From Halorutilales archaeon Cl-col2-1 (GTDB taxonomy: Archaea; Halobacteriota; Halobacteria; Halobacteriales; Afararchaeaceae), in contig CP169074.1 of assembly GCA_041891055.1 (NCBI GenBank), positions 1,632,001 through 1,696,000 of the forward strand: a DNA stretch of 64,000 nucleotides, given 5' to 3'. The position numbers and the translations under genes were made by a program. Position 1 is the first letter of the stretch; each line of letters opens with the position of its first letter. The notes beneath the pieces are model-generated. The model did no database searches and was not told the DNA's origin. It saw nothing but the letters and a program-made list of their open reading frames with translations. Shown here piece after piece: positions 37,697 to 57,869 of this stretch.

Positions 37697-37815
37697 CTCC
37701 TTTCTAACTTGATGTTTGTTAACCCTTGCCACGTTACTGTCTGGTATTTGTGACCCTAACCGTAATCGTTATTAAGTAATCAGTTCAAAAACAGTTAATC
37801 AAGAGGAAGAAAACT

Positions 37816-39084: not shown

Positions 39085-39096
39085 CTCTTAACGACT

Positions 39097-39405
39097 ATGC
39101 AGACTGCTCGCGTACGTCTTTCGGGAACTGAGCCCGACGACTTAGACCAGATTGCCGACGATGTGAAGGAGATAGCCGAGAGAACAGGTGTCAACTTCTC
39201 GGGACCTGTTCCTCTGCCGACGAAGGAACTCGAGATCCCCATACGTAAGAGCCCCGACGGTGAGGGCAACGCGACGTGGGAGCACTGGGAGATGCGCGTC
39301 CACAAACGTCTCATCGACGTCGACGCCGACGAGAGGACTCTCAGACAGCTCATGAGGATACAGGTTCCCGAGGATGTCTCGATCGAGATAGAGCTGGAGA
39401 GTTAA
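39097..39405 (+). CDS. rpsJ: 30S ribosomal protein uS10
   Basis: [26 protein letters not shown]. Confidence 0.98.
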
Positions 39406-39457
39406 ACCACAAGCCACAAAACATCTCTTAACTTATATAGAGTATAAAGTAGATAGA

Positions 39458-39529
39458 GGGCCGGTAGATCAGTGGTAGATCGCTTCCTTCGCAAGGAAGA
39501 GGCCCGGGGTTCAAATCCCCGCCGGTCCA
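39458..39529 (+). tRNA. tRNA-Ala(CGC); integration target
   Basis: GGGCCGG/CCGGTCC acceptor stem with G3:U70, anticodon arm CTTCC-TT-CGC-AA-GGAAG, GGTTCAAATCC. Confidence 0.96.
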
Positions 39530-39668
39530 AAACCTATGTTTTGGAGCATTCGAGAAACGTAGTTTCTCGATACGGTCCATACGAATTCTTACGGATTCCT
39601 CGGGAACACAAAACCACCATACAGCGACGGTTTTACCCCTCGCAAATACCTTCCCGTGAAAGTGAGTC
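39517..39668 (+). repeat. Left attachment-site direct repeat (152 bp)
   Basis: Last 13 nt of tRNA-Ala plus 139 nt downstream; 147/152 identical to 57644-57795. Confidence 0.93.
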
Positions 39669-39724
39669 TGACTCGTCTCGGAACGGAGGTCTGCTCTTTC
39701 CGGCTTTTATTTTGAGGAACCGAG

Positions 39725-41710
39725 GTGGTCGGCTTGGGTGGTGAGTCTGTTGGGACTAACATAGAGGCTGACGAGAAGATATACTGTGAGGACTGTAGCC
39801 TACATATCGACGCCGAGATCTGGGAGACACACCTCAAAAACAGACATCCCAGAGAATACGATCCCGAGACGTTCGACCTCAACGACTACATAGACCGCAG
39901 TGGCGGAGACGGGGACAACGAAGAAGACGTCGACTCTGGGGCGCGCGCGACATGCCGTAGCTGCGGAGAGACCTTCGAGACCCTCCAGGAAAGAGACGAA
40001 CACGTAAGAGAAAGCCTGAGCTGTACTCTCGAAGAGGGACAGGAAGCGAGAACACCCGATTCTACAGACCTAATCGAGCCCATCACACACGGTCTCGAAG
40101 CAAAGACGGCGTTTGACCACGGAAGCTTAGACGCATACTTCGGTCTCGTCTCAGCGGTCTACGACCTCAGCGACGAGTACCCCGAGCATAAGTCAGAATC
40201 AGGGAAGAGCCAGACTATCGATGTCGACGGAGACATTAACTTCGAGGCTGTCGGTCGTGGGTTCGAGATTACGGCTATCAAGTACTGGTCGAGTCAGCTA
40301 GACCCGAGCAGTATCGGAAGGATAGACTACGACAGGGTCAACGAGTACTCGATACAGTGTACAGAGGTAGACGGACAGGCTGATATCTCTCTCGTGCTAC
40401 GACCAAGCTGGGAGAAGATGGAGTCTCTCGACGGCGAGAGTATAGTTCCCAACGCTGAGACACCTCGTGGTCTCCGTGTACAGATAAATTCGAGCTATCT
40501 CGAACCCGACGAAGTCCTCCCAGCGGCTCGGTCTGTAGCTAAAGCCGTCGACTTTAACTCCAAGTATCTCCAGAAAAAGGATATTCGAAGAGACCTCTCG
40601 ACGTGGACACAGATAGAGAGGCATGTCAGAATTAGGAGAGAGTACTCGGAGAGGATAGTCGGACACGACGGAAAGCTAACCGAGATCTCGAAGTTCTACG
40701 CGTCGAAAGACGAGAGCGTAGGAGAGTACAAATGGGACAATCAGGACGTTCTGGGGCGGATGACCCGTCTCAGTCTTGGTGAAGATGATCTCAGTGACAT
40801 GGTGGATGTCGCGTATCCCGCGAATATCAAATATTACCATCTCAAGAATCCGAGACACTCCGTCCGAGACGCTATTGACCAACCGAAGGTAGAGGTACAG
40901 ATCAAGGGCGACAGTATACCCTGGGAGAGGATCGACGAGGCTCGTGCAGACGCCGATACTATTCTCACGAATACCCTCCGTTGGTCGGGTATTCCGGTTA
41001 ATCCGACCTCTACGGTCTATGTTGACGACGACGAGTTTACCGTCTCTCGAATGGAGTCGGATGAGGTCGAGTTCTACGTCGACCCGTGTGAGGAGATCGA
41101 AGACGCTCAGGAGGAGACTGCGGTAGGAGTCGTCGGTGTTGCCGACGAGATAGAGTTGGAGGCTCTCGAAGAGATCGTAAACAGACACGGATCGGCTTCA
41201 GTCGGAGAAGTTGCGGAGGCTCTCGACAGATCCGTCAGAAGCGTGTATAGATACGTCTCAGACAGGCTTTCGGCAGTTGTCGACCTCGACCAGGGCGAGC
41301 TCTCGATAAGCTCAGACTACCTCTTCGACAGGTTAGACGACCTCTTGGAGAAGGGAGCCAGCGTCTCGTCCGACATAGCCCAGCAGCTACGCAGTGAAAG
41401 AGCCGCAGCCGCGTCTGACTCGGCGTTAGAACGTTTCGCTACTAGATGGGGTATAGAAGGCAATCTAAAGCGCGACGACGAACTCACGGTTCACCAGGAC
41501 AGGATGACGAGATCCGAGGCTAAGGAGCTTCTGCGATCCGCATACAGTGTCTTGGGAGCACGCCGCGGCTACGACGAGGTACTCAGTATTACGTTTAGAT
41601 TCGCGGACGATCCCGATGACTATCTTACATTCGGTAAGTACGGTGAGAGAACCCAGCTTGTGATTCAGAACGACGACTGCCGCATAACGTCAGAGCTGAG
41701 ACCGAGATAA
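39725..41710 (+). CDS. Putative replication protein (betapleolipovirus/haloarchaeal plasmid Rep-like) with N-terminal C2H2 fingers and C-terminal HTH
   Basis: CxxC..H...H fingers, KYYH..P....PKVEV core, SVGEVAEALDRSVRSVYRY HTH; family assignment from memory, start uncertain. Confidence 0.55.
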   Translation: MVGLGGESVGTNIEADEKIYCEDCSLHIDAEIWETHLKNRHPREYDPETFDLNDYIDRSGGDGDNEEDVDSGARATCRSCGETFETLQERDEHVRESLSCTLEEGQEARTPDSTDLIEPITHGLEAKTAFDHGSLDAYFGLVSAVYDLSDEYPEHKSESGKSQTIDVDGDINFEAVGRGFEITAIKYWSSQLDPSSIGRIDYDRVNEYSIQCTEVDGQADISLVLRPSWEKMESLDGESIVPNAETPRGLRVQINSSYLEPDEVLPAARSVAKAVDFNSKYLQKKDIRRDLSTWTQIERHVRIRREYSERIVGHDGKLTEISKFYASKDESVGEYKWDNQDVLGRMTRLSLGEDDLSDMVDVAYPANIKYYHLKNPRHSVRDAIDQPKVEVQIKGDSIPWERIDEARADADTILTNTLRWSGIPVNPTSTVYVDDDEFTVSRMESDEVEFYVDPCEEIEDAQEETAVGVVGVADEIELEALEEIVNRHGSASVGEVAEALDRSVRSVYRYVSDRLSAVVDLDQGELSISSDYLFDRLDDLLEKGASVSSDIAQQLRSERAAAASDSALERFATRWGIEGNLKRDDELTVHQDRMTRSEAKELLRSAYSVLGARRGYDEVLSITFRFADDPDDYLTFGKYGERTQLVIQNDDCRITSELRPR

Positions 41711-42364
41711 TCCGAGATCGGACAGCCTAAGCTTTACTCAGTTTATGTTTTATTTCTGATATATCCATCTAAGAAACGCCATAGGGCGGTATCTTACTGT
41801 TTTCAGCGACTATACCGCGCGACATGAGTAGCTTCTCGATCTTGTGTGTAACTACGTCTACAGAGCTATGCGACGTCTAGATGTTTCGCCAAAATCTGTC
41901 AATATCCCCTTATATGTGTGCGTAAGCGCGCAAAATCAAAACCCGCCGTAGCCTCTTTTTGTCTAAGTGATCCAGTTGATCCACGGGAAATGAGGGTAGT
42001 TAAAGTAGAGATCATACGCTATTTTAATCGGAGACTTGGGAATAACATACATAGGAACGGCTAAGGATTTATTGCTATCTATTGGAGTTCAAAGTTTGAA
42101 AATATATCGGGGGAAGTGAGAATGTATGTAGTTTAACACTCAGAAACTAGGGTATGTACAAATCCTAATCTAAGGCATTATTACTTATTAGATTTGTATT
42201 ATGCTTGTACTATCCTATTTTCAATCCCAGTTAAGCCTTATTCCCTCATTTCCATATTTCATCTTTCTGATATATATCATTTATCTTAATCAAATATATC
42301 AAATAGGATACATTTCACCTAACTTTTATTAACAAATCTTATGTACTGTCCTAAGGGGTGTTAA

Positions 42365-43099
42365 GAAATCAGACTATACATTCGATCAGATAGCGGGAAA
42401 AAACCCCGGTTCCAATTGCCCTGGAACTACCACATGTCTTTCCAGAGTTTCATATACCAAGCTCTGGACAAATACGAGCCGGAGATAGCTACCAAACTAC
42501 ATCAATACCCTCATGCACCACCATTCTCGTTCAGCGAATTCATCCAAACCGGTCCTTTTCAGGCTACAGATGATGGGCTAATGTGTGAGAGCGGATATTG
42601 GATCGTCACGTCTGACGATAAGAGAATCATAGACGCTGTGGCTAACCATGCTCAACATGATAGCAAGCTAACTCTCGGACACACAACAATCCCCGTCACT
42701 GGAGTAGATATTGAGAAGATCCAGGGTAAGGAGAAAGAGAGGTACAAGTCTACGAGTCCGATATACGTAAGTCAAAGAGGAGAAGATGGAGAAGTAGAGG
42801 ATCTTTTCCCAGAAGACGGAATGTGGTACTCTCGTCTGAAGGACAGCGTTAGAGATAGGATTCGTCATGAGAGAACTCTCCCAGATGATTTCCAGTTTAT
42901 CATCGATGAAGTCCATTGGTCGAAGAAAAAACGCCTACGTTCGGGAGATGGATGGCGATCCTGTTCTCGACTAGAGTTAACGATCAGATCCGATCTAGAG
43001 ACGAGTGAGTTCATTCAGCAACAAGGGCTCGGAGAAAAAACTGGGATGGGTTTTGGTAATCTCATGCCCACCAATGAAATCCCGGAGGAGTGGCGATGA
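42365..43099 (+). CDS. cas6: CRISPR endoribonuclease Cas6 (start codon ambiguous)
   Basis: LPWNY, FSFSE, SPIYV, C-terminal GLGEKTGMGFG loop; frame open from 42365, first canonical start TTG 42416. Confidence 0.88.
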   Translation, partial: EIRLYIRSDSGKKPRFQLPWNYHMSFQSFIYQALDKYEPEIATKLHQYPHAPPFSFSEFIQTGPFQATDDGLMCESGYWIVTSDDKRIIDAVANHAQHDSKLTLGHTTIPVTGVDIEKIQGKEKERYKSTSPIYVSQRGEDGEVEDLFPEDGMWYSRLKDSVRDRIRHERTLPDDFQFIIDEVHWSKKKRLRSGDGWRSCSRLELTIRSDLETSEFIQQQGLGEKTGMGFGNLMPTNEIPEEWR

Positions 43100-45009
43100 G
43101 TATTCAAGCAGATATTGAAAAGTTTGAGGAAGGAAAAGAGAAGAAACTTCTCTTCAAGCTCTCCCAAGATGCATTCGTAAATGAGGGGGCGGTCGAAATG
43201 GCGAGGGGTCTTGGGGACTTAGTGGAGATAGAAAGCAACAAGATACTGATTAACTCAGAGGCTTCGAAATCAGAAGTAGCAGAGCGGGTAGAAGATATAT
43301 TAAGAGAAGGATTATCTCAGACACACCGGAGAACTAACGTAGCTCACCAGATTAACGATACTGTTGATGAGAGAGACGAGTTAGATGATAGCCTGAGAGT
43401 AGGTGCACCAAACACACATTTTCCGATGGATTCTGACGAAGATGAGACGGTGTACGAAAATGATACAGTTAATATTGAAGAGCTAAGAAATGTCGGCATA
43501 GATCCATCGGAGATAGATATAGACGAAGGTGATGAAAAGAGCCTCTATACGCTTTCGCCGACATTCGTAGGAAGACCACAGCCGGGAAGATACGGTTTCC
43601 AAGCCTCCCTCGATAACACTGAGGATTACTTTGATATATTTACGAAATACATAGAAGGCGAATATGAAGGATCAGAGGATGACTACTGTACCAACTGTGG
43701 TTCCAGTGGAATACCAAGCTGGCAGGTGGAGGACGAAGAAGGAAATAAAATTAAACTAGAGCACAGCCAAGCATCCTCAATACTGTTAACTAAGTCGAGT
43801 AATCCGTCTCCTCTTGGTCAGGGGTCACCCAAAAGCAGTTATCAAGGTAGATGTGTTTCGTGTCTTATAGCAGGATTCTATTACACGCTGATCGAGAAAG
43901 CAGTTCGTCTCGTAAGTTTCGATGATGGGGGAGAATACCGTATTTTTACTCCAGTAGGTGACTTTGAGGAGTTACGTAATATACGCGGAGATCTGACTAA
44001 CATCTGGGAAAGCGGAGGTGAAGGAGGAAGAACTATTAATGAACCTACATCGAACAGCAAAGCTCGGCAGCAGAATATAGGATCTACAAGAAGTAGATCC
44101 AAGGGGATACAGATACTCGACTTCTTCAGCGAGGTTCTCAGACAGGGTAATATAGATATTGTAGGAGGAGAATACTCTAAAGAGACGATTCACAGACCCA
44201 CTTCTCTAATAACTTATATTACCTCTCCAATGAAGAGTGGCAACTATGTTAGAGAGATAAAGTCGTTTGAAAGTGTGGATTCGGACAGTTGGATATACGA
44301 AGTTGTCCGTGAGAGAGAGTTAGAACCAGAAGGTCAAGAAGATGAAGATTGGGATGAGAGTTACTGGGCTGTACCCGACGTTTTGTCTTGGTTTGCAAAT
44401 ATATCCCAGAATAGCGAGGAAGTTGGAATAGACGAGAAGGATATGATTGGCTACGGGATAATAGAGAAGGATCTAAAACAGATAGAGAGAGGTCTATTCG
44501 AGCTTCTGAAGAAAGTCGAGAAAGAGAAGGGGGAAATAACTCCCTATATGTTACCCATCGCAAAAACAAGAAACTATTTCGGAGATATCATGAGACAATC
44601 AGCAAGCACTGAGAGTATAGACAGTGAACAGATCGAGAGCATCACGAATGTAGCCTCCAACCTTGGGGGGATGTTCTATGACAGGGATAATATAAGCGTG
44701 CTAATATCCCTCCAGAGCTCGAACACTCCCTCCGAGTTTTTACAAGCATTCGAGAAGGCGTCTATGCAGGCTCAAAAGATGATAACTGACGAAGGTGAAG
44801 GAGGAGAGGATGAGGAGTTCCGAAGAAAGGCAATAAACCGCTGGTCGGGAAAAGAAGACATCGAGACTGTTCTTGAATTAATAACAGATCCAGACAAGTT
44901 TGAGGACGCAAAAAGAATGTTCGTTATACAAGCATCGCTGTCGGCACATTACCAGAATAGTGTAAAGAACTACCAAGAGAGCCAGTCAGATACTGGAGGT
45001 GATCAGTAA
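43096..45009 (+). CDS. cas8: Type I large subunit Cas8 (Cas8b/Cst1-like, CxxC...CxxC) with Cas11-like C-terminal domain
   Basis: Between cas6 and cas7; CTNC and CVSC pairs; helical C-terminal about 140 aa; ATG 43096 overlaps the cas6 stop. Confidence 0.75.
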   Translation: MSIQADIEKFEEGKEKKLLFKLSQDAFVNEGAVEMARGLGDLVEIESNKILINSEASKSEVAERVEDILREGLSQTHRRTNVAHQINDTVDERDELDDSLRVGAPNTHFPMDSDEDETVYENDTVNIEELRNVGIDPSEIDIDEGDEKSLYTLSPTFVGRPQPGRYGFQASLDNTEDYFDIFTKYIEGEYEGSEDDYCTNCGSSGIPSWQVEDEEGNKIKLEHSQASSILLTKSSNPSPLGQGSPKSSYQGRCVSCLIAGFYYTLIEKAVRLVSFDDGGEYRIFTPVGDFEELRNIRGDLTNIWESGGEGGRTINEPTSNSKARQQNIGSTRSRSKGIQILDFFSEVLRQGNIDIVGGEYSKETIHRPTSLITYITSPMKSGNYVREIKSFESVDSDSWIYEVVRERELEPEGQEDEDWDESYWAVPDVLSWFANISQNSEEVGIDEKDMIGYGIIEKDLKQIERGLFELLKKVEKEKGEITPYMLPIAKTRNYFGDIMRQSASTESIDSEQIESITNVASNLGGMFYDRDNISVLISLQSSNTPSEFLQAFEKASMQAQKMITDEGEGGEDEEFRRKAINRWSGKEDIETVLELITDPDKFEDAKRMFVIQASLSAHYQNSVKNYQESQSDTGGDQ

Positions 45010-45947
45010 TGAAAGCAATAGGTATGAACTACCTGACCTATGTAGACCTCGGGAATCATAACGCAGGAGAAGGAGGAAGTCAATTATCCGACCTCAAAAA
45101 GTACGGAAACAAGCCCTACATCAGTGGACAGGCATACCGACACTCAATCAAAGACGCTCTGAAAGCAATAGTCGATGACTTGAGTACTGTAGACTGCACT
45201 CCGAGGAACGCATGTGGGGACATAGAGAACTGCAAGCTGTGTGACCTATTCGGTTACATGAATACTGATCTAGAACCCGATGACGGAGAACCCAATCCAA
45301 ATAGAGTTTCACCGCTTAGGGTTAGTCCTCTAGTTGGGCAGTATGACATGCCGATAACGACAGATCTCGTCGTCCAATACGATGTAGAAGGCGATAATCG
45401 TATGGCACGCCGGGAAATAGAGGAGAACGTATTCAAGGGAGGGATTGCGCTGGATCTAGATTCTATAGGAAGACGAGAGAATGAGGAAGTCAATACAGAC
45501 AGGGACTACGACGAGCAGTATCATCGTGAGCTTGAAAACGAGATAGACGAAGACGAGAGGAAAGAAAGAGCGAAGGAACTCATAGATGCTGTTCAAAACA
45601 GCACACAGCTAGCAGGTCAGGCTCGCCACATGGCAGATTTCATGCCGGATCTTCTGGTAGTCTCAAGCCAAGACCAGTACAACCAGAGAGTAAGCAATGC
45701 ATTACATGTTGACCCCGAATCCGGCGAACTCAACACAAAATCCTTCGAGAGCGTACTCCAAGACCTCACTAATATGGAGTCTGACGGTGAGGGGAAGGTG
45801 TGGGTCGCTGGAACGTATAACCCCGAAGTAATCTCAAACTGGGATGAAGTGATGGAAACCGCCGAAGAAATTGAGGGAGTGACTATTGTTGATACCGTAA
45901 GTGGATGTTATGAGGCGGTAAAAGAAGAAATCGACTCGGAACTATAG
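45009..45947 (+). CDS. cas7: Cas7, DevR/Cst2-type
   Basis: PYISGQAYRHSIK, CDLFGYM, RVSPLRVSP, LDLDSIG. Confidence 0.92.
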   Translation: MKAIGMNYLTYVDLGNHNAGEGGSQLSDLKKYGNKPYISGQAYRHSIKDALKAIVDDLSTVDCTPRNACGDIENCKLCDLFGYMNTDLEPDDGEPNPNRVSPLRVSPLVGQYDMPITTDLVVQYDVEGDNRMARREIEENVFKGGIALDLDSIGRRENEEVNTDRDYDEQYHRELENEIDEDERKERAKELIDAVQNSTQLAGQARHMADFMPDLLVVSSQDQYNQRVSNALHVDPESGELNTKSFESVLQDLTNMESDGEGKVWVAGTYNPEVISNWDEVMETAEEIEGVTIVDTVSGCYEAVKEEIDSEL

Positions 45948-45951
45948 TATA

Positions 45952-46677
45952 ATGACCCAACAGATCCTCCGAGCTACGCTTGACGTACCTTTCGAGTGTG
46001 CATTTAGAGACCCAGACTCGATGAACGCCTTACCTACATACAGTGTTCCACCAGTTACTACACTCCAAGGAATGCTATATGCTGCACTTGCACGTCCTTC
46101 CCTACTTTTCCAGTCAGGTAGAAGCCGGTATATTCCAAAAGACCTGAGAGATGATGAGGAAGAGTTTCGTAGGGAGGTTCAAGACAAGTGTCAGTTTGGC
46201 ATAAGAGTCATAGAACAAGGGAAAGAGTACAACGGTCTGAAGACTCGTCAGAAGATGGAGGATAAAAGAGGGCAAAATGACGCGAGGTATAAAAGCTATG
46301 TGACAAATGAGGAAACTTTGATCGAGCCCACATTTCGGATTTATATAACTGAAAATGGAGGGGAGGAATACCTAGATATATTCAAGCAAGCTCTTGAAGA
46401 TCCTTCTCGAATGCTGTATTTAGGACGCTCAGATGATATAGTAGATGTATGTGATGTTCATCTCATTGAAGCCGAGAAGGTAAACAAAACCAAGAGTCTG
46501 GACTGTGTCGTCCCAAGTGCTGAAGGAGAGCATCTAGAGATGTTGCCCGTGGAGCCAGATCACAGATCCGGTCGTTCTACAAAGCCTCCAAGAGTCAAGG
46601 CAGTTTCAATAGATGGTGCCGAGGTGGGTAGTTATTATCGTACTTCAGATGGGGAAGAGTTTGTATTTATAACTTGA
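45952..46677 (+). CDS. cas5: Cas5
   Basis: AFRDP...TY.VPP.TTL.GML.AA, LYLGRSDD. Confidence 0.92.
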   Translation: MTQQILRATLDVPFECAFRDPDSMNALPTYSVPPVTTLQGMLYAALARPSLLFQSGRSRYIPKDLRDDEEEFRREVQDKCQFGIRVIEQGKEYNGLKTRQKMEDKRGQNDARYKSYVTNEETLIEPTFRIYITENGGEEYLDIFKQALEDPSRMLYLGRSDDIVDVCDVHLIEAEKVNKTKSLDCVVPSAEGEHLEMLPVEPDHRSGRSTKPPRVKAVSIDGAEVGSYYRTSDGEEFVFIT

Positions 46678-46721
46678 TTCTTTTTTAAGTTTTTCTCAGC
46701 TTCCGTCGAAGAGTTGAACTA

Positions 46722-49238: not shown

Positions 49239-49354
49239 CTAGAGTAAGAAATTTATACTAGATAAGTGTTCTTGAAGTATTAGCCTTCAAAGATAGGCTT
49301 TTCTTCGCTAGCCCATGTGGTAATGTAATCTGGTATAAAGGGGCTAGAATCGAA
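49239..49354 (-). promoter_or_regulatory. CRISPR leader
   Basis: AT-rich non-coding segment between the cas2 stop and the first repeat. Confidence 0.75.
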
Positions 49355-49618
49355 TCATAAGAATCGATTATCTTCTAAAGACTCACCAATTGTCTCTGTC
49401 TCGACCCAATCCGGATTAGAAACCTTATACACAATAACTTGATCATCCCCTTGGACAAGCCCATCCAGACCAGACTTTATTTCCTTATACTCGCTCTGAG
49501 TTAATTCCCCATCAAAAACACTATTTTGCCTCCAAGTTAGCCATTTTCGTAAGTAGTCACATAGCTTTTGAGTTCTACTTGCTTTAACATCGTATACTAT
49601 TATAACGTTCATTTTCAT
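49355..49618 (-). CDS. cas2: Cas2
   Basis: IIVYDV, QNSVFDGELT. Confidence 0.95.
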   Translation of the reverse strand: MKMNVIIVYDVKASRTQKLCDYLRKWLTWRQNSVFDGELTQSEYKEIKSGLDGLVQGDDQVIVYKVSNPDWVETETIGESLEDNRFL

Positions 49619-50595
49619 CTAGCAGTTGTTGGTTGATACTCTTCTATCTCCAGAATATGCTTAGTTATGCGATGGCATTCCTGACGTATCCATCGTCTCC
49701 AAGACATATTACGTCTGATTTGAGGATGTTTCCTAGTTTGCAGTAGACGTTCATCGAAAGCATCAACAAAAGTCGATTTAGCAGATTCATTCATACTACA
49801 GAAGTCCCCTTCCTTCTCGAAATCGTCAGGGGTTATTTTTCCTTGGTTAGCTAGACCTATAATCAGCCTGTCAACTATCAGAGGCTTGAAAATTTCAGCG
49901 ATATCCAGACTTAGACTATACCGTCTCTCGTGTGGCTCGTGGAGAAAACTCACTGTCTGGTCAAGACGTGTATGATATATTTCTGTTACTATAGAACCAT
50001 ATAACATTGAATTACCATAACTCATTAAACTATTAGAAGGATCTTCGGGAGGATTCTTAGAACGACCGTTCAATTCCATTCCATCAGCGATTACGTGGTC
50101 AAAACCATCGTAGTATATCTTACGTGCCTCACCTTCGATTTCCATTAATTCAGGTATAGACTCTGCATTCTCGAGAAGCTGTTTTCTAAGTTCAAGTTCT
50201 TCATCAGCTATACAGCAATTGTTTTCCCCATATCTAAGTAGGGTTAGCCTAAGGTTTTCTATACTACCTTTGACGAATTTTCGAGCTAACTTCAGACGCT
50301 TTTCTTCGTCTAAATAATATTCAGACTGTTTTGTCACACACATCCCACTCAGAATAGGCTTAGGTGGCTGAAAACAGCCTAAATACTTGCCGCCATAACT
50401 AAAGACATGTAATGTTGTGTTGGTTTCTTCAAGTAGATCATGGACTCCAGGGGTTATGGTAATCCCCTCAGTAGCGAATATATCATAGACTTTCTCAATA
50501 GGAATTGGTGTCTTGTCGTTCTCAGTTTCGAAATAAAGAGTGTTCCGTTCCCGAGTTAAGGTTCCCCTTGAATTTATGTAATATCTATCTTTCAT
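49615..50595 (-). CDS. cas1: Cas1 (I-B type)
   Basis: G.L.R..NTL.F, IEGE....YY, N.LMSYGN..LY, SFLHEP, LDIAEIFKP. Confidence 0.96.
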   Translation of the reverse strand: MKDRYYINSRGTLTRERNTLYFETENDKTPIPIEKVYDIFATEGITITPGVHDLLEETNTTLHVFSYGGKYLGCFQPPKPILSGMCVTKQSEYYLDEEKRLKLARKFVKGSIENLRLTLLRYGENNCCIADEELELRKQLLENAESIPELMEIEGEARKIYYDGFDHVIADGMELNGRSKNPPEDPSNSLMSYGNSMLYGSIVTEIYHTRLDQTVSFLHEPHERRYSLSLDIAEIFKPLIVDRLIIGLANQGKITPDDFEKEGDFCSMNESAKSTFVDAFDERLLQTRKHPQIRRNMSWRRWIRQECHRITKHILEIEEYQPTTAR

Positions 50596-51089
50596 GCAAA
50601 ACAGAACTCCCTCATACTACATTTTTTACAGGCAGTTTTCCACTCCGGATCTGGACAATCCCCCTCGATAATCTCTCGTATGTTTTTAGTCACCTCATCA
50701 TGTCTTTTCTGGATGTCTTCAGACCAATCCATCTCTTTTTTTGTGCTTTCTTCAGGGTATCTTAGAATACCCACAACTTCAGTTTCTTTTTCCGAGTGGA
50801 GTAAATGCATATAATGAATCAGTTGTATTTCATCAGCATCTTGATACGTAGAGGAGCGTTTGACCTCGTTTATCTCTATTTTGTCCCCCTTGCGTATGAA
50901 ATCTATCTGATTATTTCCGATATTTTTTGTATCTTCTCTCTTGAAGCTATCTGAGTCAAGTAATTCCCCAAGCTTCACGTATTCGTTCTCATCTGCATAA
51001 AGAATCCTATAATGGTGGTACCAGAGCTTAGTTTTACATATTGTATAGTAGTGATAGTGCTGTCCAGTAAGCTCTCTTTCAGATATCAT
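50592..51089 (-). CDS. cas4: Cas4
   Basis: ICKTKLW, ID..., EVKRS, QL..Y, CKKCSMREFC Fe-S ligands. Confidence 0.95.
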   Translation of the reverse strand: MISERELTGQHYHYYTICKTKLWYHHYRILYADENEYVKLGELLDSDSFKREDTKNIGNNQIDFIRKGDKIEINEVKRSSTYQDADEIQLIHYMHLLHSEKETEVVGILRYPEESTKKEMDWSEDIQKRHDEVTKNIREIIEGDCPDPEWKTACKKCSMREFCFA

Positions 51090-53570
51090 CTATAGTTGTG
51101 TACTAGATCGAATGTCATCTGGTATTCTTCTTACCTCAGTGTCTGGGGGTATTACCCCATACTCATAACTATACTCTATGTTGATCACCTGAGTTCCTTC
51201 AATTTCACCGTATTCATCCTTAAATCTATGGGGAGGATCGAGAGTTATATCATCACTAACTAACCACCACTTGGGTATAGGGACAGTATATTCTCTGAGA
51301 AAAACGCTCAAGTCCTCTTTACACTCATTGTAATAGTCTTCATGTACTCCACATCTACCATTCCTATCGCAATCATGGAATTCTTTCCATAGGTCACTAG
51401 GTAATGGAGACTCCGAATTGTGATGATATTTGGAAGGCAACATAGAGATACGTCGACTGCTATCCTCACGGATATTCAGATCTTCCGATCCTTCTGTCTC
51501 GTCCTCACCCAACCTTCGTAGCTTTCCATAGAGTAGGTCATTCGAAATAGCATTTCCGAACTGAGTTGTGTTCATATTCATCTTACTTAGATCCACTCCT
51601 GTGTACGATTCTTCTACCCACTTCAGGCTGTCTTTAAAGCTATACATGCCAGCATTCTCGAAGACCTTCTCAGTCTGTTCTAAGATCTTCCACTTCTCTT
51701 TTTCCTCAGGACTTTGATCTTTGTAGCCTGCGTAGGGGTACCACGTATCTGTATCTTCATCCGAAATCGGAGAAAAGACTACACAACGATACTTGTGATT
51801 TTGATCATCCTGTTTGAAGCTTGCACACTGATCACAGTTACAGTCCTCCGAGCTGGGTCTATATCCTTCTCTGTGGAGTCTGCCTGCCCTCTGTATTACT
51901 GCGTCGGCAGGTGCTATATCAGTCAGAAGCAAATCCGCTGAGAGATCGAGACTGATCTCACACACCTGTGTGGATACGAGAAACTGTCTTTCATCCGGAT
52001 TCGAATCTATTCCGAATATATCGCGTATCTCCTCTTCCTTATCTTGCCTATGGTCTTGAGTAAATTCGCTACTATAGTAGGTAACATTCTCACCGTCTTC
52101 CTTTAGATCCCAAGCGAGATCTCTAGCCCCAGATACAGTATTTTTGACTATCATCACCTTCTTCGCGTCACTTTCTTCTAGGTACTCTTGAACTTCGGAG
52201 GTGGTGAGTTCAGAGTTTTCTGTAATAACTTCAAATGCTTCTCTCACTCCCTGATCTTCTTCGAGTATCCCTTCACTCCGGACTTTCTCTGAGCCATCGA
52301 AAGCTCGGTCATTCTGTAGTTGTTGAGGCATGGTGGCGGTCATAACATACCAAGGCACACCAAGATCATCGAGTCTTCTTATCGTCGAAAGTATATGACC
52401 CGTGGTATATGCATCGTAGGCATGTATCTCATCAAATATAACTGCACTTCGTAACACGTTGCCCTTTGCTATGCTTGCCGTTTTGTATCCATTCACAAGA
52501 GAAGAGAGTAGATGGTCAACAGTACAGACTGTCACAGGCTTCTGGAACCATTTTCTTGCTTCTTCACCAAGGTTCTCTGATTTCCAGACCTGTTCTCCGG
52601 TACTTTCGAGGAAACTCTTATCCGCACCGTGGTATAGTGCTGCTTTGCTAGCTTCAATTTCCTCGTCTCCCTTGGTCATTGAAAGCAGAAGATTATTCGT
52701 AGTCACCTGGGTTGGCATCGCAAATATCATTCTGTCTGCTTTCTCTTCTTCTATCATCTTCTGCCCCCACTGGAACGCTGTGTGGGTTTTTCCTTCACCA
52801 CATCCGGCAAGCCCCAAGAGATGATCTGTATCAGTCTCTTCTATTTCTTTTTGGAAAGGTCGGAGTGATGAGAATAGATCTATATCGTCGGAATAGAGAG
52901 TCTCAAACTGGGTTTTTGGGTCTCCGGATTCCTTCGAGCTAACATAATGGTCAGCTTGGACTAAAGCGGAGTGTAAAAGAGTGGAGAGAATACCCACTTC
53001 CAGATAATCAGACTCTGATAGCTCCTTCTTTCGGTACTCACGTAACTGGGATTTAAGGCTTTTTTTCAGGTTAGTATCTATTTCAGTTTCCGGAAGACCG
53101 ATACTCCCGACGTTATCCACCATTTTTTGAGTCCCAGATATAGAATAGAGTCTACTGTTTTCTGGTCTCATTTTGCCCATCGTGAATGGGGTATGGTGAT
53201 GAAGAATAGCAAGAGTTAGAGAAACCCCTTGGTTTATAGGAAGACCTTCATCTCTAGCTTTTGCGAATGCGTAAATCCCACTTCTATCGCTATGAGTGGG
53301 TAAATTTGGTTTCTTGTCTTGTCTTACTGCATTTTTAGCTTCAGACTGCCATTCTTCATGAGCTTTCCCGACATCGTGGTAGAGTCCAGCTAACTCCCCG
53401 CAGTCTAGGATGTCACCGAAATCGGTTTCAAGTTCCCTCGCTATTCTTTTAACAGCATGTGAGTTGAGTATAGATCTCGTTTCCTTCGATACTTCTTCTA
53501 AATGAGTTTTAAGAGTTACTTGGTCGGAGATGGACTTCGAACGATCTAGTTTAGCTATGAGAGGCTGCAT
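51090..53570 (-). CDS. cas3: Cas3 (N-terminal HD nuclease fused to SF2 helicase)
   Basis: TH, YHDVGKA, HH, QADH; GEGKT, DEIH, TAT, QRAGRLHR; start placed at MQPLIAK (TTG 53579 alternative). Confidence 0.96.
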   Translation of the reverse strand: MQPLIAKLDRSKSISDQVTLKTHLEEVSKETRSILNSHAVKRIARELETDFGDILDCGELAGLYHDVGKAHEEWQSEAKNAVRQDKKPNLPTHSDRSGIYAFAKARDEGLPINQGVSLTLAILHHHTPFTMGKMRPENSRLYSISGTQKMVDNVGSIGLPETEIDTNLKKSLKSQLREYRKKELSESDYLEVGILSTLLHSALVQADHYVSSKESGDPKTQFETLYSDDIDLFSSLRPFQKEIEETDTDHLLGLAGCGEGKTHTAFQWGQKMIEEEKADRMIFAMPTQVTTNNLLLSMTKGDEEIEASKAALYHGADKSFLESTGEQVWKSENLGEEARKWFQKPVTVCTVDHLLSSLVNGYKTASIAKGNVLRSAVIFDEIHAYDAYTTGHILSTIRRLDDLGVPWYVMTATMPQQLQNDRAFDGSEKVRSEGILEEDQGVREAFEVITENSELTTSEVQEYLEESDAKKVMIVKNTVSGARDLAWDLKEDGENVTYYSSEFTQDHRQDKEEEIRDIFGIDSNPDERQFLVSTQVCEISLDLSADLLLTDIAPADAVIQRAGRLHREGYRPSSEDCNCDQCASFKQDDQNHKYRCVVFSPISDEDTDTWYPYAGYKDQSPEEKEKWKILEQTEKVFENAGMYSFKDSLKWVEESYTGVDLSKMNMNTTQFGNAISNDLLYGKLRRLGEDETEGSEDLNIREDSSRRISMLPSKYHHNSESPLPSDLWKEFHDCDRNGRCGVHEDYYNECKEDLSVFLREYTVPIPKWWLVSDDITLDPPHRFKDEYGEIEGTQVINIEYSYEYGVIPPDTEVRRIPDDIRSSTQL

Positions 53571-53649
53571 CCTCTTCAAATATATTAACTATCTGTCTTT
53601 AAATATTCATCTCCGAAAAGGATTATATGGATCAAAGATTGGTTCTATT

Positions 53650-53728
53650 AGTATAATAGTGCCTAGGTTGGATTGAAATACGAGATGCCCGTGCAGATAG
53701 CTCGACAGAAGGTATTGGCTTCTTTTTC
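53650..53728 (+). ncRNA. Solitary degenerate CRISPR repeat plus spacer-like guide (crRNA-like RNA)
   Basis: TAATAGTGCCTAGGTTGGATTGAAAT matches 24/26 of the repeat 3' part with an intact handle; BRE/TATA GAAAAGGATTATAT at 53615-53628; T-tract after about 36 nt. Confidence 0.75.
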
Positions 53729-53952
53729 CTGACTTCTTCTTCAAGCTCGATTAACCCAACCTTTTCTAACTCAGTACATCGTGATAGGTCGTAACAACAA
53801 TTTCTCTGGCTCTATTAGTGATTCTTAACTAGCCGATTTTCCTGTAAATTCGGGTAGAAGACCTTGAATATACTCCATATAGACATTAATTCACACTCTC
53901 AATCCATGGTACTATCCGGAAGTTCAAAGTAAAAACGGGTATAACGATAACT

Positions 53953-54567
53953 ATGGCTGAAGTCTGGATGACAGAGGATGAGATACAGGATCTCGAACTC
54001 CAAGCCGATAAGCTCAGAGATAGACTCATAATACAGCTTGGTGCTTACAGCGGTATGAGAATTGGCGAGATTGTAAACCTCCAAGTATCCGACCTAAACC
54101 AGGACACTGTTGATGGAGAACTGAGATACTTCGCGAAGGTTGAGGGGAAGAAGACCGATCAAGAAGCCGAAGGTAAGACAGAGACGAAGACCCGTGACGC
54201 TTGGATAACCCAGGATACCTGGAAAGACCTACAGACCCACATAAACCAGGAGAATCTCACTAATGACGACTATATCATGAACTCCAGATACGGAGGGAAG
54301 ATACACAAAGACAGCGCGAGGAAAATAGTAAAAAGAATTGCTGAGAAAGCCTACGAGCAGACTGAAAAAGAGAAATTCCTTGATGTGAGTAGCCATGACC
54401 TACGACGCTTTTTTGCCCATCATCTGGCTGAAGAAAAGGGTGTTAATATACGTGTAGTTATGGATCTTGGTGGCTGGGAAGATCTACAGACATTTGTGAG
54501 GCACTACTTGGATAAACCAAGTAAGATGACTAAAGCCCAAGAGCTCGATAATGCAGGCTGGAGTTAA
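53953..54567 (+). CDS. Small tyrosine recombinase (catalytic domain only)
   Basis: GMRIGE, GK, HDLRR, GGW, HY catalytic residues in 204 aa. Confidence 0.9.
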   Translation: MAEVWMTEDEIQDLELQADKLRDRLIIQLGAYSGMRIGEIVNLQVSDLNQDTVDGELRYFAKVEGKKTDQEAEGKTETKTRDAWITQDTWKDLQTHINQENLTNDDYIMNSRYGGKIHKDSARKIVKRIAEKAYEQTEKEKFLDVSSHDLRRFFAHHLAEEKGVNIRVVMDLGGWEDLQTFVRHYLDKPSKMTKAQELDNAGWS

Positions 54568-54880
54568 GACCCGACAATAGCACGCTCATACTTTCTACTA
54601 CCACCAATATAACTAATTAGCCATTCACGTCTCCTAATTTTGAAAGTACCGAGATCCTTAATTCGTTAATTCCGGACAGCTCAGGGGAATTAGTATTACG
54701 CGATACGAGCGAGGATGTATCCATATGAAGACGTAGATGGATTACTATTAGACAACCTACTTCTGTCGAATAGGAAATATCCCATTTACCCGCCGCTTGA
54801 TGGCATATTTCTAAAACCGCTGTAAGGCGTTGGGTTAATGGACAAGTTAAGTATCTTGAGTACGTGTATAGATTTGTAAA

Positions 54881-55216
54881 ATGACCGTACTGAACTGTAA
54901 TAGCTGTGGTCACGGCTGGAACTACTCCGGAGGTCTTACTGACTACACGACATGTCCTAATTGTGGACATTCAGTAAAGATTCCTTCGGCAGATAGTTCC
55001 AATTTTAAAGCAGAAGACGTCGAAGAGGAAATGGGATCGTTCGAAGAACGTCTCGACCGGTTAGAAGAGACGTTAACGAAGGTACAAGATGACCTCATTA
55101 CTATCGAGGAGAAGATATCAGATAGAGACAAAGCCTCTTCTAAAACCGAGACTGACGAGAAGAGCAACGAGGGAGGTCTATCTCCCTATGACCCTACGAT
55201 GGAATTTGAATTTTAA
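54881..55216 (+). CDS. Zinc-ribbon (CxxC/CPxCG) plus coiled-coil protein
   Basis: CNSCGHGW...CPNCG then heptad repeats. Confidence 0.75.
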   Translation: MTVLNCNSCGHGWNYSGGLTDYTTCPNCGHSVKIPSADSSNFKAEDVEEEMGSFEERLDRLEETLTKVQDDLITIEEKISDRDKASSKTETDEKSNEGGLSPYDPTMEFEF

Positions 55217-55239
55217 AACGACGGGAAGAACTCCTCCTA

Positions 55240-56154
55240 TCACTTCTCGACGTTCTCGACTTCCTCTTGAGTCAAAAGATCCTCGATGTCCATCTTTTCC
55301 TCTATGTCCTCTGTGTCCGGGATCTCGGAAATTCTCTCTTCTTCGTCTTCTGAGTCGTCAGATAGATCCATATCTATCACTTCTACGTTCTTTAGGAAAA
55401 CAGCATCCTCCCACGGTCGAAGTAGGTACGCTCCGGTACCTGCTACAGTGAGATAGGCTATACCGTCTAAGTCGCCTTCTTTCTTTTCGAATTTCCACTC
55501 TGTATTCTCCGGTAAATCTGGAAGACGTGTACTGAACCTACCAAGCTCTTTTTCGACCAAAGGTACGGCGAATTTACTATTTAACTCCGCGGTTAGAAGT
55601 GCGTAAGAAGAGTTCTCGAATATTCCCATGTCGAACTCCACAGTGGCTAAATGTCCATGTGCCTCGTTCTTTTTCTCTACCTTATCCGAAAATCTCTCTT
55701 CAGGAGGCAGTTCATCGAGGTCTTCCTCTTCGTATGATATGACGTTTATCAGCCTCGTCATTTTAAAATCGTCACCAACAACTACGAAATATGCCTTATC
55801 GCCCGAGGTCAGTTTCTCTCCGTCGTGGGTATAGACACACGACATGTCTTTTACTCCTCCGACCAGACGCCCTTCCCAGTATTCCTTGACTAATCTACGT
55901 GCTCTTTCTTCATCTGATAACTCTTGGTTGGGCTCTGTCTCTATGCCTACAACATAGTATGCTGTGGCATTACTGACCTTTACCGAGTCTATCTTCTCCC
56001 CCTTAGACAACTCTTTAAGACGGTTCTTTGCCGTAGTCTTGCTAACACCTGTATGCTCCGCTATCTGGGACGCCGTCCATACCGGACGGCTTCCGCTTTT
56101 CATGAGGGTCAAGACCTCCTCTTTCGTCAACTCCCTGTCTCTTCCGCGTGACAC
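55240..56154 (-). CDS. phiH1-repressor-like wHTH protein with long uncharacterised C-terminal domain
   Basis: PVWTASQIAEHTGVSKTTAKNRLKEL HTH; divergent from the integrase as in SNJ2-like modules. Confidence 0.7.
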   Translation of the reverse strand: MSRGRDRELTKEEVLTLMKSGSRPVWTASQIAEHTGVSKTTAKNRLKELSKGEKIDSVKVSNATAYYVVGIETEPNQELSDEERARRLVKEYWEGRLVGGVKDMSCVYTHDGEKLTSGDKAYFVVVGDDFKMTRLINVISYEEEDLDELPPEERFSDKVEKKNEAHGHLATVEFDMGIFENSSYALLTAELNSKFAVPLVEKELGRFSTRLPDLPENTEWKFEKKEGDLDGIAYLTVAGTGAYLLRPWEDAVFLKNVEVIDMDLSDDSEDEEERISEIPDTEDIEEKMDIEDLLTQEEVENVEK

Positions 56155-56462
56155 TATTGGCTATTCAATGCCTGTTAACTTAGCTTTTCTGTTCGAACTG
56201 AAACCCCGTTTCAGACATAAAGTTTAAGTCAAGGGATCTCATTAGTAACACTCAGGATGACATAACAAACACAGTGGTAATATCGCGGGAAAAGCTACCT
56301 GACCCCCAGATGCCCACGCCCTACCAAAGCACGGCATCTTTCGAGGGTCGGTGAAATACCCCATCAGAAGGGGTTGTATAGATACACCCATATTTAGAAC
56401 CTCGACCAATTAATGGTTTGGGTTACTCTACTCCTTCTGATGGGTCGTCTAAGACGACCACA

Positions 56463-56594
56463 ATGAAAAACGAAATACGAAACCAGAAACCGACAGAAGG
56501 CGAAAAGAGAACTAACAGAAACGGACGACGGGTACGAATACCTCTCACCTCAGAGATAGCCGGGACAGTGGAAGGGGTGGTTCCGGATGAGTGA
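56463..56594 (+). CDS. 43-aa ORF translationally coupled to the integrase (possible accessory factor)
   Basis: MKNEIRNQKPTEGEKRTNRNGRRVRIPLTSEIAGTVEGVVPDE; ATGAGTGA overlap with the integrase start. Confidence 0.45.
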   Translation: MKNEIRNQKPTEGEKRTNRNGRRVRIPLTSEIAGTVEGVVPDE

Positions 56595-57603
56595 ACTACA
56601 GCCTCTCGAACCTGAGGAAGGGGTTGAGATGTATCTTGATACCCGAGAGGACGAGCTCAGTAGGGAGACGTTACGGAAACAGAAGACGCGTCTCGATGCT
56701 TTTCTGAGCTGGTGTGAGGACAGAGGTATAGAGAACCTCAACGAACTGACCGGCAGAGATCTCCAGCGGTACCGACAGTGGCGCAAGAAGGGCAAGGGGG
56801 ACGGATACGGTAAGGTCAAAAACGTCACACTAAGGTCTAATCTCACTACACTCCGAGTTTTCCTCGAACACTGTGCGAATATCGATGGTGTCGAGAAGGG
56901 GATGCGAGAACGTGTTATGCTTCCTGAGGTGGAGGATGGAACGAAGGACAGTAAGATAGCCGAAGAACGTGTTAGGGATATACTCGATAAACTCGAAACC
57001 TACGAGTACGCGTCTCGTAGGCACGTGATGATATCCCTGATGTGGCACGGTGCTCTACGTATCGGGACTATACGTGCTCTCGACGTCGGTGACTTCGATC
57101 CCGATGAGCCCTGTCTGAAGATACGCCACCGTCCAAGCACAGACACACCCCTCAAGAACCGTGAAAGTGCAGAACGAGATCTTGCTCTCGGTGACTTCTA
57201 CGCTCAGGTTATAGAGGACTACATCGAGGAGAACCGCCATGATGTCCAGGATGACTACGGAAGGCATCCTCTCATAACAAGTACAGAAGGAAGGCTGACA
57301 AAGACTCCATACAGAACTGCGGCGTATAGGGTCTCACTTCCGTGTTGGACAGATGACTGTCCACATGGCAAGCAGCGAAAGACGTGTGAATGGACGAGCC
57401 GCGATAAGCTTAGTCACTGTCCTAGTTCGAAGTCTCCTCACGACTTCCGACGCTCGTCTATCACATACCATCTCAAAGAGAACGTTCCTCCGGAGATAGT
57501 CTCAGACCGTGTCGACGCTACTCCTGACGTAATTGAGAAGCACTACGACAAGAGGAACGAACGCGAGAAGATGCGGACGAGGAAGGAGCTCCTAAACTTA
57601 TGA
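56587..57603 (+). CDS. SNJ2-family tyrosine integrase
   Basis: LQPLEPEE.V..YL, LTGRDL, RIGT, HRP..TPLKN, CPHG...CPSSKSPHDFRR, KHYD; 40 bp from the right repeat. Confidence 0.92.
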   Translation: MSELQPLEPEEGVEMYLDTREDELSRETLRKQKTRLDAFLSWCEDRGIENLNELTGRDLQRYRQWRKKGKGDGYGKVKNVTLRSNLTTLRVFLEHCANIDGVEKGMRERVMLPEVEDGTKDSKIAEERVRDILDKLETYEYASRRHVMISLMWHGALRIGTIRALDVGDFDPDEPCLKIRHRPSTDTPLKNRESAERDLALGDFYAQVIEDYIEENRHDVQDDYGRHPLITSTEGRLTKTPYRTAAYRVSLPCWTDDCPHGKQRKTCEWTSRDKLSHCPSSKSPHDFRRSSITYHLKENVPPEIVSDRVDATPDVIEKHYDKRNEREKMRTRKELLNL

Positions 57604-57643
57604 GTCGGAACGCGGTCATACACAATACGGTTATAGTCACGCC

Positions 57644-57795
57644 CCCCGCCGGTCCAAAACCTATGTTTTGGAGCATTCGAGAAACGTAGTTTCTCGATAC
57701 GGTCCATACGAATTCTTACGGATTCTTCGGGAACACAAAACCACCATACAGCGACGGCTCCACCCCTCGAAAATACCTTCCCGTGAAAGTGAGTC
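57644..57795 (+). repeat. Right attachment-site direct repeat (152 bp)
   Basis: Starts CCCCGCCGGTCCA (tRNA 3' end); 5 mismatches to the left copy. Confidence 0.93.
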
Positions 57796-57869
57796 CGAAT
57801 AATACAGGGACTGAATGTGAGTAAATAAGACAAAAGACTCTATACACAGTTATGCCAGAGACAGAGGAT

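Follow-up and report, generated by a model that had tools for sequence, protein, structure and literature searches.

Why does a complete CRISPR-Cas system lie between two tRNA-derived repeats, together with an integrase and a replication gene related to those of viruses? The question is raised by a locus of Halorutilales archaeon Cl-col2-1 (genome G000; 2.06 Mb, four contigs). The window, i.e. the whole stretch of 64,000 nucleotides (nt) that was analysed, corresponds to G000:C1:1632001-1696000, and coordinates are window positions unless a contig is named. Within it lies a unit of 18,282 bp, both repeats included, that is probably an integrative element based on a betapleolipovirus backbone for integration and replication (SNJ2-type integrase, Rep-Arvir initiator with an origin hairpin, and winged helix-turn-helix (wHTH) regulator) and acting as a mobile defence carrier. 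This reading is carried by the anatomy of the locus, its homologies, the catalytic residues it has kept, the purifying selection on its genes and the replacement of its cargo between relatives. Mobility appears well supported by comparison of genomes, and excision, replication, regulation and CRISPR activity would follow by analogy with characterized systems.

Integration and replication backbone

The boundaries of the element and the two enzymes of its backbone are the following.

39458-39529, plus strand: tRNA-Ala(CGC), intact, the integration target (ARAGORN; Rfam tRNA, 70.4 bits)
39517-39671, plus strand: left attachment site attL, 155-nt direct repeat (repeat comparison)
39725-41710, plus strand: Rep-Arvir (DUF7845) rolling-circle initiator, 661 residues (PF25227, PHROG 3288, homology to SNJ2 ORF19)
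41917-41932, plus strand: candidate nick-site hairpin of the origin, 6-bp stem and TAAG loop (motif alignment, DNA fold)
56587-57603, plus strand: SNJ2-type tyrosine integrase, 338 residues (homology, catalytic residues)
57644-57798, plus strand: attR, second copy of the 155-nt repeat, beginning 40 nt past the int stop codon (repeat comparison)

A first-pass annotation of this DNA had proposed a unit of about 18.1 kb between tRNA-Ala-derived repeats. Such a pair was found: the two 155-nt copies are 96% identical, lie 18,127 nt apart and are the only two in the whole genome, attL overlapping the last 13 nt of tRNA-Ala. The 14 nt at 39517-39530, CCCCGCCGGTCCAA, are invariant in all five att copies of G000 and of G001, the only genome of the same genus (98% complete, 120 contigs). 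Since nothing else is common to the five copies, these 14 nt are taken as the att core; that of SNJ2 has 14 bp (PMC5861418).

The integrase is 45.3% identical to that of HHPV4 and 44.8% identical to that of SNJ2 over 99% of its length, and each of the 12 phage records that match it spans 80% or more of the protein, HHPV4 and SNJ2 being the best. It falls within the SNJ2 type, whose threshold is 30% identity to IntSNJ2 across more than 90% of the length (PMC5861418). Its catalytic pentad R...K...HxxR...Y is intact, R158, K190, H285, R288 and Y320 aligning with R165, K199, H295, R298 and Y330 of IntSNJ2. In this family, the His/Trp-III residue is replaced by Ala or Val and the Glu/Asp-I residue by Gly or Ala (PMC5861418). 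The first substitution is found here, A311 aligning with the signature A321 of IntSNJ2, and the Glu/Asp-I column holds Thr161, which is not acidic, yet is neither Gly nor Ala. Identity and signature residues thus bear out the SNJ2-type assignment made at first pass. The ratio of nonsynonymous to synonymous divergence (dN/dS) against G001 is 0.19, and no close relative was returned by a peptide-pattern scan of viral contigs.

The replication gene, whose viral kinship had also been proposed, is homologous to the betapleolipovirus replication initiator. Its product matches PF25227 over residues 117-440 (6.5e-62, 210 bits against a cut-off of 27) and PHROG 3288 (5.2e-68), and is 24% identical to SNJ2 ORF19 over 450 residues (E = 1e-16). 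SNJ2 ORF19 is RepSNJ2, a rolling-circle initiator with the catalytic residue Y283 and the essential residues E25 and E303 (PMC13107129, 2026). In the element, Y371 aligns with Y283 and is invariant in all six aligned proteins, E390 aligns with E303 and G489 with G410, and the wHTH stretch can be aligned with that of SNJ2. Seven phage records match Rep (LSV-48N, HRPV-3, HHPV3, HHPV4 and duplicates), none of which covers 80% of it, and a peptide-pattern scan of genome contigs gave no close relative. Its dN/dS against G001 is 0.23. The N-terminal extension of 116 residues (39725-40072) contains two CxxC...H...H zinc-finger-like motifs; it is missing in four viral homologues and kept in G001. Elsewhere in the genome, G000:C1:362803-363013 encodes two Rep fragments (34 residues at 91% and 23 at 57% identity) that look like the trace of another copy.

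RepSNJ2 requires a hairpin located 176-197 nt downstream, the motif of which is essential for replication (PMC13107129). The candidate hairpin of the element lies 207-222 nt downstream of the rep stop codon. Its GTGTG-stem-TAAG-stem motif aligns with those of SNJ2 and HHPV4, the stem being changed on both sides. Bacterial-type promoter and terminator scans of 41650-42450 gave chance-level results. DUF7845/Rep-Arvir proteins are also described in plasmids, integrative elements, and integrative and conjugative elements, in a main text that mentions neither defence nor cargo (PMC13107129).

Searches with 25 SNJ2 and 24 HHPV4 proteins against the whole genome (tblastn) matched only int and rep in the element, and BLASTP found no SNJ2 or HHPV4 protein in it beyond these two. 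This agrees with the virion open reading frames (ORFs) having been called absent at first pass. No structural gene of SNJ2 or HHPV4 was matched anywhere in G000 and no helper provirus was seen. Devoid of SNJ2/HHPV4 virion genes, the element does not qualify as a betapleolipovirus itself. Its cas cassette lies between the origin and the regulator/int block, which is the slot of the structural module in SNJ2 and HHPV4; the earlier suggestion of an immune system in the place of virion genes describes this arrangement well.

The likeness to SNJ2 and HHPV4 comprises the integrase (45% identity, Ala at the His/Trp-III site) and a 14-nt core at a tRNA 3' end shortly after int (PMC5861418). With SNJ2, the element further shares a DUF7845 Rep with its catalytic Tyr and a TAAG-loop hairpin about 200 nt after rep (PMC13107129), int and rep as neighbours on one strand only in the circle, and a divergent wHTH gene upstream of int. 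Unlike both viruses, it has no spike, membrane-protein or NTPase gene and carries CRISPR-Cas as cargo. Unlike SNJ2, it lacks Orf2/Orf3, an Orf4 homologue, the Orf7/Orc1 switch and ORF20-25, its Rep has the extra zinc-finger-like N-terminus of 116 residues, and its Glu/Asp-I site is Thr, not Gly or Ala.

Could the element be a satellite, relying on a helper pleolipovirus or some other membrane-vesicle virus for packaging and spread? Its backbone comes from a virus family whose membrane-vesicle particles hold DNA (PMC7547991), and it has no virion genes of its own. However, G000 holds no helper provirus, neither a packaging signal nor a partial morphogenetic gene is apparent, and Rep-Arvir is common in plasmids and integrative elements too (PMC13107129). 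A satellite is accordingly considered very unlikely.

As an integrative replicon, the element would function in the following manner, modelled on SNJ2. The integrase would recombine the 14-nt cores at the tRNA-Ala 3' end and release a circle. In the predicted circle, int and rep lie 248 nt apart on the same strand, an arrangement that would allow Rep to be expressed; RepSNJ2 is expressed from an operon, int-attP-orf25...orf19, that is present solely in the excised circle (PMC13107129). Rep would then nick the TAAG-loop hairpin and the circle would be replicated, and the wHTH protein would restrain excision and replication as long as the element is integrated.

Two further observations concern attachment sites. 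An attP-specific ORF like SNJ2 orf26 was considered and rejected: an open frame spans the junction, but it is also open in the integrated state, the long repeat preserving the same frame, and is thus uninformative. At G000:C1:1463956-1464928, 13 head-to-tail copies of an 81-nt unit lie behind a tRNA gene; each unit starts with a tRNA 3' end, and the array resembles a stack of att-like sites, not a CRISPR array.

The CRISPR-Cas cargo

The G+C content is 0.39-0.47 over 42001-56000 against 0.52-0.62 in the flanks. From left to right, the DUF7845 gene is followed by about 700 bp with no ORF of at least 50 residues, then by cas6-8-7-5 (plus strand), the array, cas2-1-4-3 (minus strand), a solitary repeat and a short recombinase gene. 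Three small ORFs, the wHTH gene (minus strand), a 58-residue ORF and int complete the right end. All ORFs of at least 50 residues are thereby accounted for. The features of the cargo are listed here.

41998-54781, no strand: variable cargo segment, 12.8 kb, low G+C (homology to G001 ends exactly at both points)
42416-43099, plus strand: cas6 (TIGR01877, 62.3 bits, above cut-off; Pfam)
43090-45009, plus strand: large subunit, 639 residues, Cas8b by position (homologues in the same position in five other cas loci)
45009-45947, plus strand: cas7, type I-B Cst2/DevR (TIGR02585, 104 bits against a cut-off of 72.75)
45952-46677, plus strand: cas5 (PF09704, 47.2 bits; the Cas5t model stays under its cut-off)
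46722-49238, presumed minus strand: CRISPR array, 38 identical 30-nt repeats and 37 spacers of 36-39 nt
49239-49354, minus strand: putative leader, A+T-rich, adjoining cas2 (a metagenome contig has a different spacer at this end)
49355-49618, minus strand: cas2 (Pfam, 4e-16)
49615-50595, minus strand: cas1 (Pfam, 4.2e-82)
50592-51089, minus strand: cas4 (Pfam, 6.3e-38)
51090-53579, minus strand: cas3, HD and helicase domains (cas3_core 229 bits, cas3_HD 71.6 bits, both above cut-offs)
53650-53679, plus strand: solitary degenerate CRISPR repeat matching at 24 of 30 nt, located upstream of cas3 and oriented away from this gene

The genes cas6-8-7-5 and cas2-1-4-3 and the 38-repeat array reported at first pass are all present, and all eight cas genes are open. 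Family matches are full length save for the large subunit, which gave 0 matches in Pfam, NCBIfam and PADLOC. The cassette comprises a type I-B effector set (Cas3, Cas7, Cas5, Cas6 and the large subunit), a cas1-cas2-cas4 adaptation module and the array, whose repeat count has an expectation of 0 in 100 shuffles. On the minus strand the repeat reads GTCG...ATTGAAAT; strand and leader are presumptive assignments.

Among 400 other Halobacteria genomes, four encode homologues of the large subunit (36-41% identity), and nine relatives were found in a collection of 5.8 billion proteins, the best at 51%. Cas6 matches one PLSDB plasmid, at 53% identity. The Cas lineage is rare, as judged by these searches. 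The homologue genomes have the usual order cas6-8-7-5-3 ... 4-1-2; in the element, the array separates two halves of the set, the second of which is inverted. Low G+C and the presence of Cas8 homologues in few Halobacteria argue for a foreign origin of the cassette. When the whole of G000 was searched, Cas1, Cas3 core (above cut-off), Cas6 and DevR each matched inside the element only, which therefore holds the only detectable cas genes of the genome. Contig G000:C2 (116 kb) carries two more arrays, at 22979-23592 (37-nt repeat, at least 9 copies) and at 99470-101608 (30-nt Haloferax-like repeat, 33 copies); cas genes were not found on this contig with the queries used.

Of the 37 spacers, 29 are unique. 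At the array end distal to cas2 (46752-47329 and 47695-47862), one pair of spacers is present in two copies, one spacer is repeated five times consecutively and another is present three times, which could be an effect of repeat recombination or of assembly. All 38 repeats are identical, the terminal one included. Spacers 27 and 28 (48499-48601) are overlapping, slightly different versions of one target with ...CAGGACC[G/C]GCACATGGAGAA in common, and GATCGGCATCTTCGA is common to spacers 30 and 37. It seems that one invader family was sampled on several occasions. A spacer on G000:C2 (about 100023-100058) matches spacer 30 of the element, in reverse complement, at 30 of 35 positions.

The search of virus and plasmid databases advised in the first-pass annotation was run and brought no convincing target. 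The array region gave no match among 50,697 phage records at E values up to 1 and only chance-level matches (E = 0.7) among 72,556 plasmid records. Partial matches of 22-46 nt in 16 of 400 other Halobacteria genomes (E of 3.6e-4 to 8.5e-3 per genome) fall in unrelated long ORFs and are taken as chance. In IMG/VR, four 24-nt spacer cores gave no exact match, scans for the exact 30-nt repeat came back empty in both genome contigs and metagenome contigs, and no convincing self-target of at least 20 nt was seen in G000. A CreA/CreR-like role of the solitary repeat was considered and is not supported: a second repeat is absent, and the 46 nt that come next match the rest of the element over 11 nt at most. 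No target was found for it either.

Part of the analysed stretch is covered by four metagenomes (X1-X4), in shares of 0.06-0.15, and the parts without cover carry no information. In X4, low-depth contigs cover cas6, cas8, cas7 and cas3 with 15-24 differences in 301-655 nt, and some contigs have other spacer neighbours at both array ends. A related system with different spacer content therefore exists in nature.

Cargo exchange and the remaining genes of the element

The tRNA-Ala locus of G001 carries the same backbone with a different cargo, so that the cas locus is not fixed at this site. G001 matches the window over 37275-41997 (94.5%) and 54782-57714 (95.3%), and nothing of the 12.8 kb between. 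Its cargo at the left break encodes a 200-residue recombinase, an HNH protein, a 969-residue helicase that matches BrxHII over nearly the whole profile (3.6e-181), two unassigned ORFs and the C-terminal part of a PglX/type IIG methylase truncated by the contig end. No Cas1 was found in G001. A G001-like backbone with the same two cargo break points was seen in X1 and X2, from one study, and X3 gave short pieces only. X1 and X2 are not independent of G001 since they may be its source.

G001 contains a second integrase beside the right-hand host flank, 82% identical to that of the element (98% for the other one), and three att copies; two tandem elements are therefore likely (loci L006, L018 and L025, on contigs C95, C81 and C1 of G001). 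The attL of G001 lacks 50 nt between two CGGTCCA motifs. Between G000 and G001, identity is 94.3-96.5% in the host flanks, 95.2% in rep, 96.5% in the origin region and 98.3% in int, and the synonymous divergence (dS) of int is 0.046 against 0.214 for EF-1alpha next door. The right-hand module, whose identity exceeds that of the host flanks and whose int has the lower dS, thus post-dates the species split, consistent with recent movement or exchange.

To place the element among its relatives, Rep-Arvir loci of Halobacteria were surveyed. PF25227 has 411 matches in a set of 401 genomes (G000 included), 257 of which contain at least one. The 20 kb around 60 of the 69 best-scoring places were searched by tblastn (E <= 1e-5, at least 40% of the query), seven places near contig ends and two with an internal stop being left out. 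The surveyed loci are those closest to the Pfam profile; the Rep of this element scores far lower and its own sub-group lies outside the sample. An SNJ2-type integrase was found in 28 of the 60 loci, virion genes in 21, and any of the eight cas genes in none. A CRISPR-like run in L116, given by a k-mer finder, was rejected as Tandem Repeats Finder did not confirm it. Eleven loci had an integrase and no virion match; three of them (L125, L135, L141) do carry SNJ2/HHPV4 spike, NTPase or gp14 PHROG families, and 8 of the 28 integrase-bearing loci have no detectable virion genes. Three of these eight are minimal elements of 6-7 kb (L085, L087, L117). Three others carry defence genes between short repeat pairs that overlap a tRNA: L098 encodes PbeA (6.5e-284), PbeC (6.7e-205) and a methylase, L140 a type IIG-like methylase, and L096 HsdM, HsdS and HsdR with an inverted int. 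Defence cargo is common in the larger of these capsid-less elements, and CRISPR-Cas was found in the present element only.

The segment from origin to regulator would accordingly be a swappable cargo slot, filled with CRISPR-Cas here, with a BREX-like system in G001 and, in elements of the same build in other genera, with restriction-modification or Pbe. A swappable slot with defence cargos is what leads us to propose a mobile defence carrier. The cargo could also be a mobile unit of its own, nested in the backbone by means of a short recombinase, a view that is compatible with the mobile carrier. The gene in question stands at the right cargo edge, in front of a block of small backbone genes and the regulatory region.

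53953-54567, plus strand: short tyrosine recombinase, 204 residues, catalytic domain only (PF00589, 2.3e-22)
54617-55451: three small backbone ORFs, of 117 (minus strand), 111 (plus strand, zinc ribbon and coiled coil) and 120 residues (plus strand)
55240-56154, minus strand: 304-residue protein with an N-terminal wHTH (HTH_11, 1e-5), divergent from int, candidate repressor by position
56186-56203, no strand: 18-bp palindrome in the divergent promoter region, candidate operator (sequence)
56418-56594, plus strand: basic 58-residue ORF overlapping the int start, coding status uncertain (ORF calling)

The short recombinase and the three small ORFs, like the duplicated spacers and the solitary repeat, had been missed at first pass. 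In alignment with two homologues, the recombinase has kept R, HxxR, W and Y. Catalytic-domain-only recombinases of about 200 residues are encoded in both cargos (53953-54567; L025 6831-7433), on G000:C3 (L080 7423-8022) and at G000:C2:27522-28052, and an 84%-identical chromosomal copy lies at G000:C1:1302294-1302902. L080 (G000:C3, 10,286 bp) is plasmid-like, encoding a 1086-residue protein with an NrS-1 polymerase HBD domain, a ribbon-helix-helix protein and the short tyrosine recombinase.

For an autonomous cargo speak the presence of this gene in the cargos of both G000 and G001, where the two proteins are just 38% identical to each other, and its homologues on C3, C2 and C1. It is also found in 5 of the 60 surveyed Rep-Arvir loci, all five of which have no SNJ2-type integrase. 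Nevertheless, the two cargo borders share no direct or inverted repeat of at least 11 nt, the gene lies at one end of the cargo in G000 and at the other, in reverse orientation, in G001, and the protein could equally be a multimer resolvase of the replicon. Nesting by this recombinase is thus regarded as doubtful.

The regulatory region bore out the first-pass annotation in part. The phiH1-like repressor that it had named stands as to fold class and position, a repressor gene upstream of the integrase and in the opposite direction being known from the literature (PMC10123103); BLASTP against the SNJ2/phiH1-type repressor gave E values of 3.2 and 0.063 only. The wHTH protein is therefore a candidate repressor analogue, in fold class and position only. 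Its Atlas neighbours are archaeal wHTH regulators of 74-94 residues, and its Atlas model is of low confidence past the first 75 residues or so (predicted local distance difference test, 0.39). The gene is open in both genomes (304 residues against 301 in G001) and has diverged more between them than any other backbone gene, with 88.7% nucleotide and 82% amino acid identity, its neighbours being 97-99% identical and the small-ORF block 99.1%. The tiny ORF also proposed is present at 56418-56594, with no likeness to the SNJ2 accessory proteins: it does not align with Orf2 and gives E = 0.70 with Orf3. Its dN/dS against G001 is 1.37, on just 5 changes.

Several observations weigh against the proposal of a mobile defence carrier. 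The wHTH protein has no detectable relation to SNJ2 Orf4. The 155-nt repeat is much longer than the core and holds a second CGGTCCA motif, for which reason part of it may be the relic of an earlier element. Since no spacer target was found, CRISPR activity can only be presumed. Further observations would speak for a domesticated or decaying remnant, i.e. a pleolipoprovirus that lost its virion genes and its mobility, in which the cas cassette landed later and which is now an ordinary chromosomal island. No excision product or circular form was seen in the metagenome data. SNJ2 Orf2, Orf3 and ORF20-26 have no detectable homologue in the element, and in SNJ2 integration depends on Orf2 and Orf3, and replication of the virus genome on each of ORF20-26; Orf2/Orf3-like candidates were not found in 14 mobile genetic elements (MGEs) either (PMC5861418). 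The Rep column of the essential SNJ2 E25 holds Gly123, with Glu125 two residues on. Finally, the tRNA site is also occupied in G001, the sole genome available from the genus. A possible empty site is given by one low-depth metagenome contig that joins 39544 to 57876; its shorter side has 43 letters at 88% likeness, and such joints are often spurious.

A remnant is nevertheless unlikely. Both int and rep are full length with catalytic residues kept and low dN/dS (0.19 and 0.23), and the origin motif is kept as well. The right-hand backbone is closer between the two genomes than the host flanks are, the cargo is wholly different between two species of one genus, and the three att copies and two integrases of G001 are a sign of repeated integration at the tRNA. 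The mobile defence carrier remains the preferred explanation.

Precedents and significance

Several related systems are in print. Among 38 MGEs with SNJ2-type systems, 33 are pleolipoproviruses or their remnants, two are replication and integration cassettes and five are other MGEs (PMC5861418, 2018); CRISPR is unmentioned in the main text of that study. The two elements No. 2 and No. 19 (Wang et al. 2018, PMC5861418) resemble the present one in having a replication protein, an integration/excision module and no capsid; the minimal elements L085, L087 and L117 of the survey are of this reduced kind. They differ from it, as far as their descriptions can be compared, in being bare cassettes, whereas 12.8 kb of defence cargo is carried here. 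More recently, type I-B systems described as lacking cas1, cas2 and cas4 were reported in proviruses of Haloferax lucentense, Natrinema salifodinae and Halobacterium GSL-19, and complete systems beside integrases on plasmids were proposed as mobile precursors (Naki and Gophna 2025, PMC12596717). Like these proviral systems, which are the sole CRISPR-Cas locus in two hosts, the present one is a horizontally acquired type I-B system on an integrated element of Halobacteria and a mobile defence module. Unlike them, it has its adaptation genes, and its carrier is without virion genes, the carriers reported there being proviruses or their remnants with viral genes (PMC12596717).

Complete type I-B systems are also known from the thaumarchaeal cryptic integrated elements NitVie-E4 and NitEve-E4 (PMC6563490, 2019). 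These belong to another phylum and have an unrelated backbone, no Rep-Arvir or SNJ2-type integrase being reported in their description. Bacterial pipolins, which are tRNA-integrated replicons, similarly combine a fixed replication and integration backbone with a variable defence slot; they are bacterial, use a primer-independent PolB instead of a rolling-circle Rep and share no homology with the element (PMC11551731). No cas-bearing element of SNJ2 or Rep-Arvir type was found in the literature, although the supplementary element lists of PMC5861418, PMC13107129 and PMC12596717, outside the search, could include such elements or others bearing defence genes. What is new, with close precedents in print, is thus that a capsid-less integrative replicon of rolling-circle type, derived from pleolipoviruses, carries a complete CRISPR-Cas system whose Cas lineage is rare.

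The element joins two lines of research, on the betapleolipovirus Rep that is expressed only after excision and on CRISPR-Cas in haloarchaeal proviruses, and represents the mobile yet complete form postulated as a precursor in 2025 (PMC12596717). It is a small and well-delimited replicon whose parts are testable in existing haloarchaeal genetic systems. Its scaffold of about 5.5 kb (att, rep, origin, regulator and int) could serve integrative or replicative vectors.

Overall, the element seems to belong to a larger group of defence carriers. More tentatively, there may be a haloarchaeal family of pleolipovirus-derived, capsid-less rolling-circle replicons in which the virion slot became an exchangeable defence slot, giving inducible, copy-number-boosted and horizontally shared immunity. 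If so, its cargos so far would be CRISPR-Cas, BREX-like, type I and type IIG restriction-modification, and Pbe systems. As the operon int-attP-rep would form only after excision, stress or infection could excise and amplify the element, raise the dose of the immune system and leave the circle free to spread. The BREX-like system of G001 and the elements with restriction-modification and Pbe systems suggest that carrying defence is a general role of this backbone. Were this true, it would account for part of the patchiness with which defence systems are distributed in Halobacteria.

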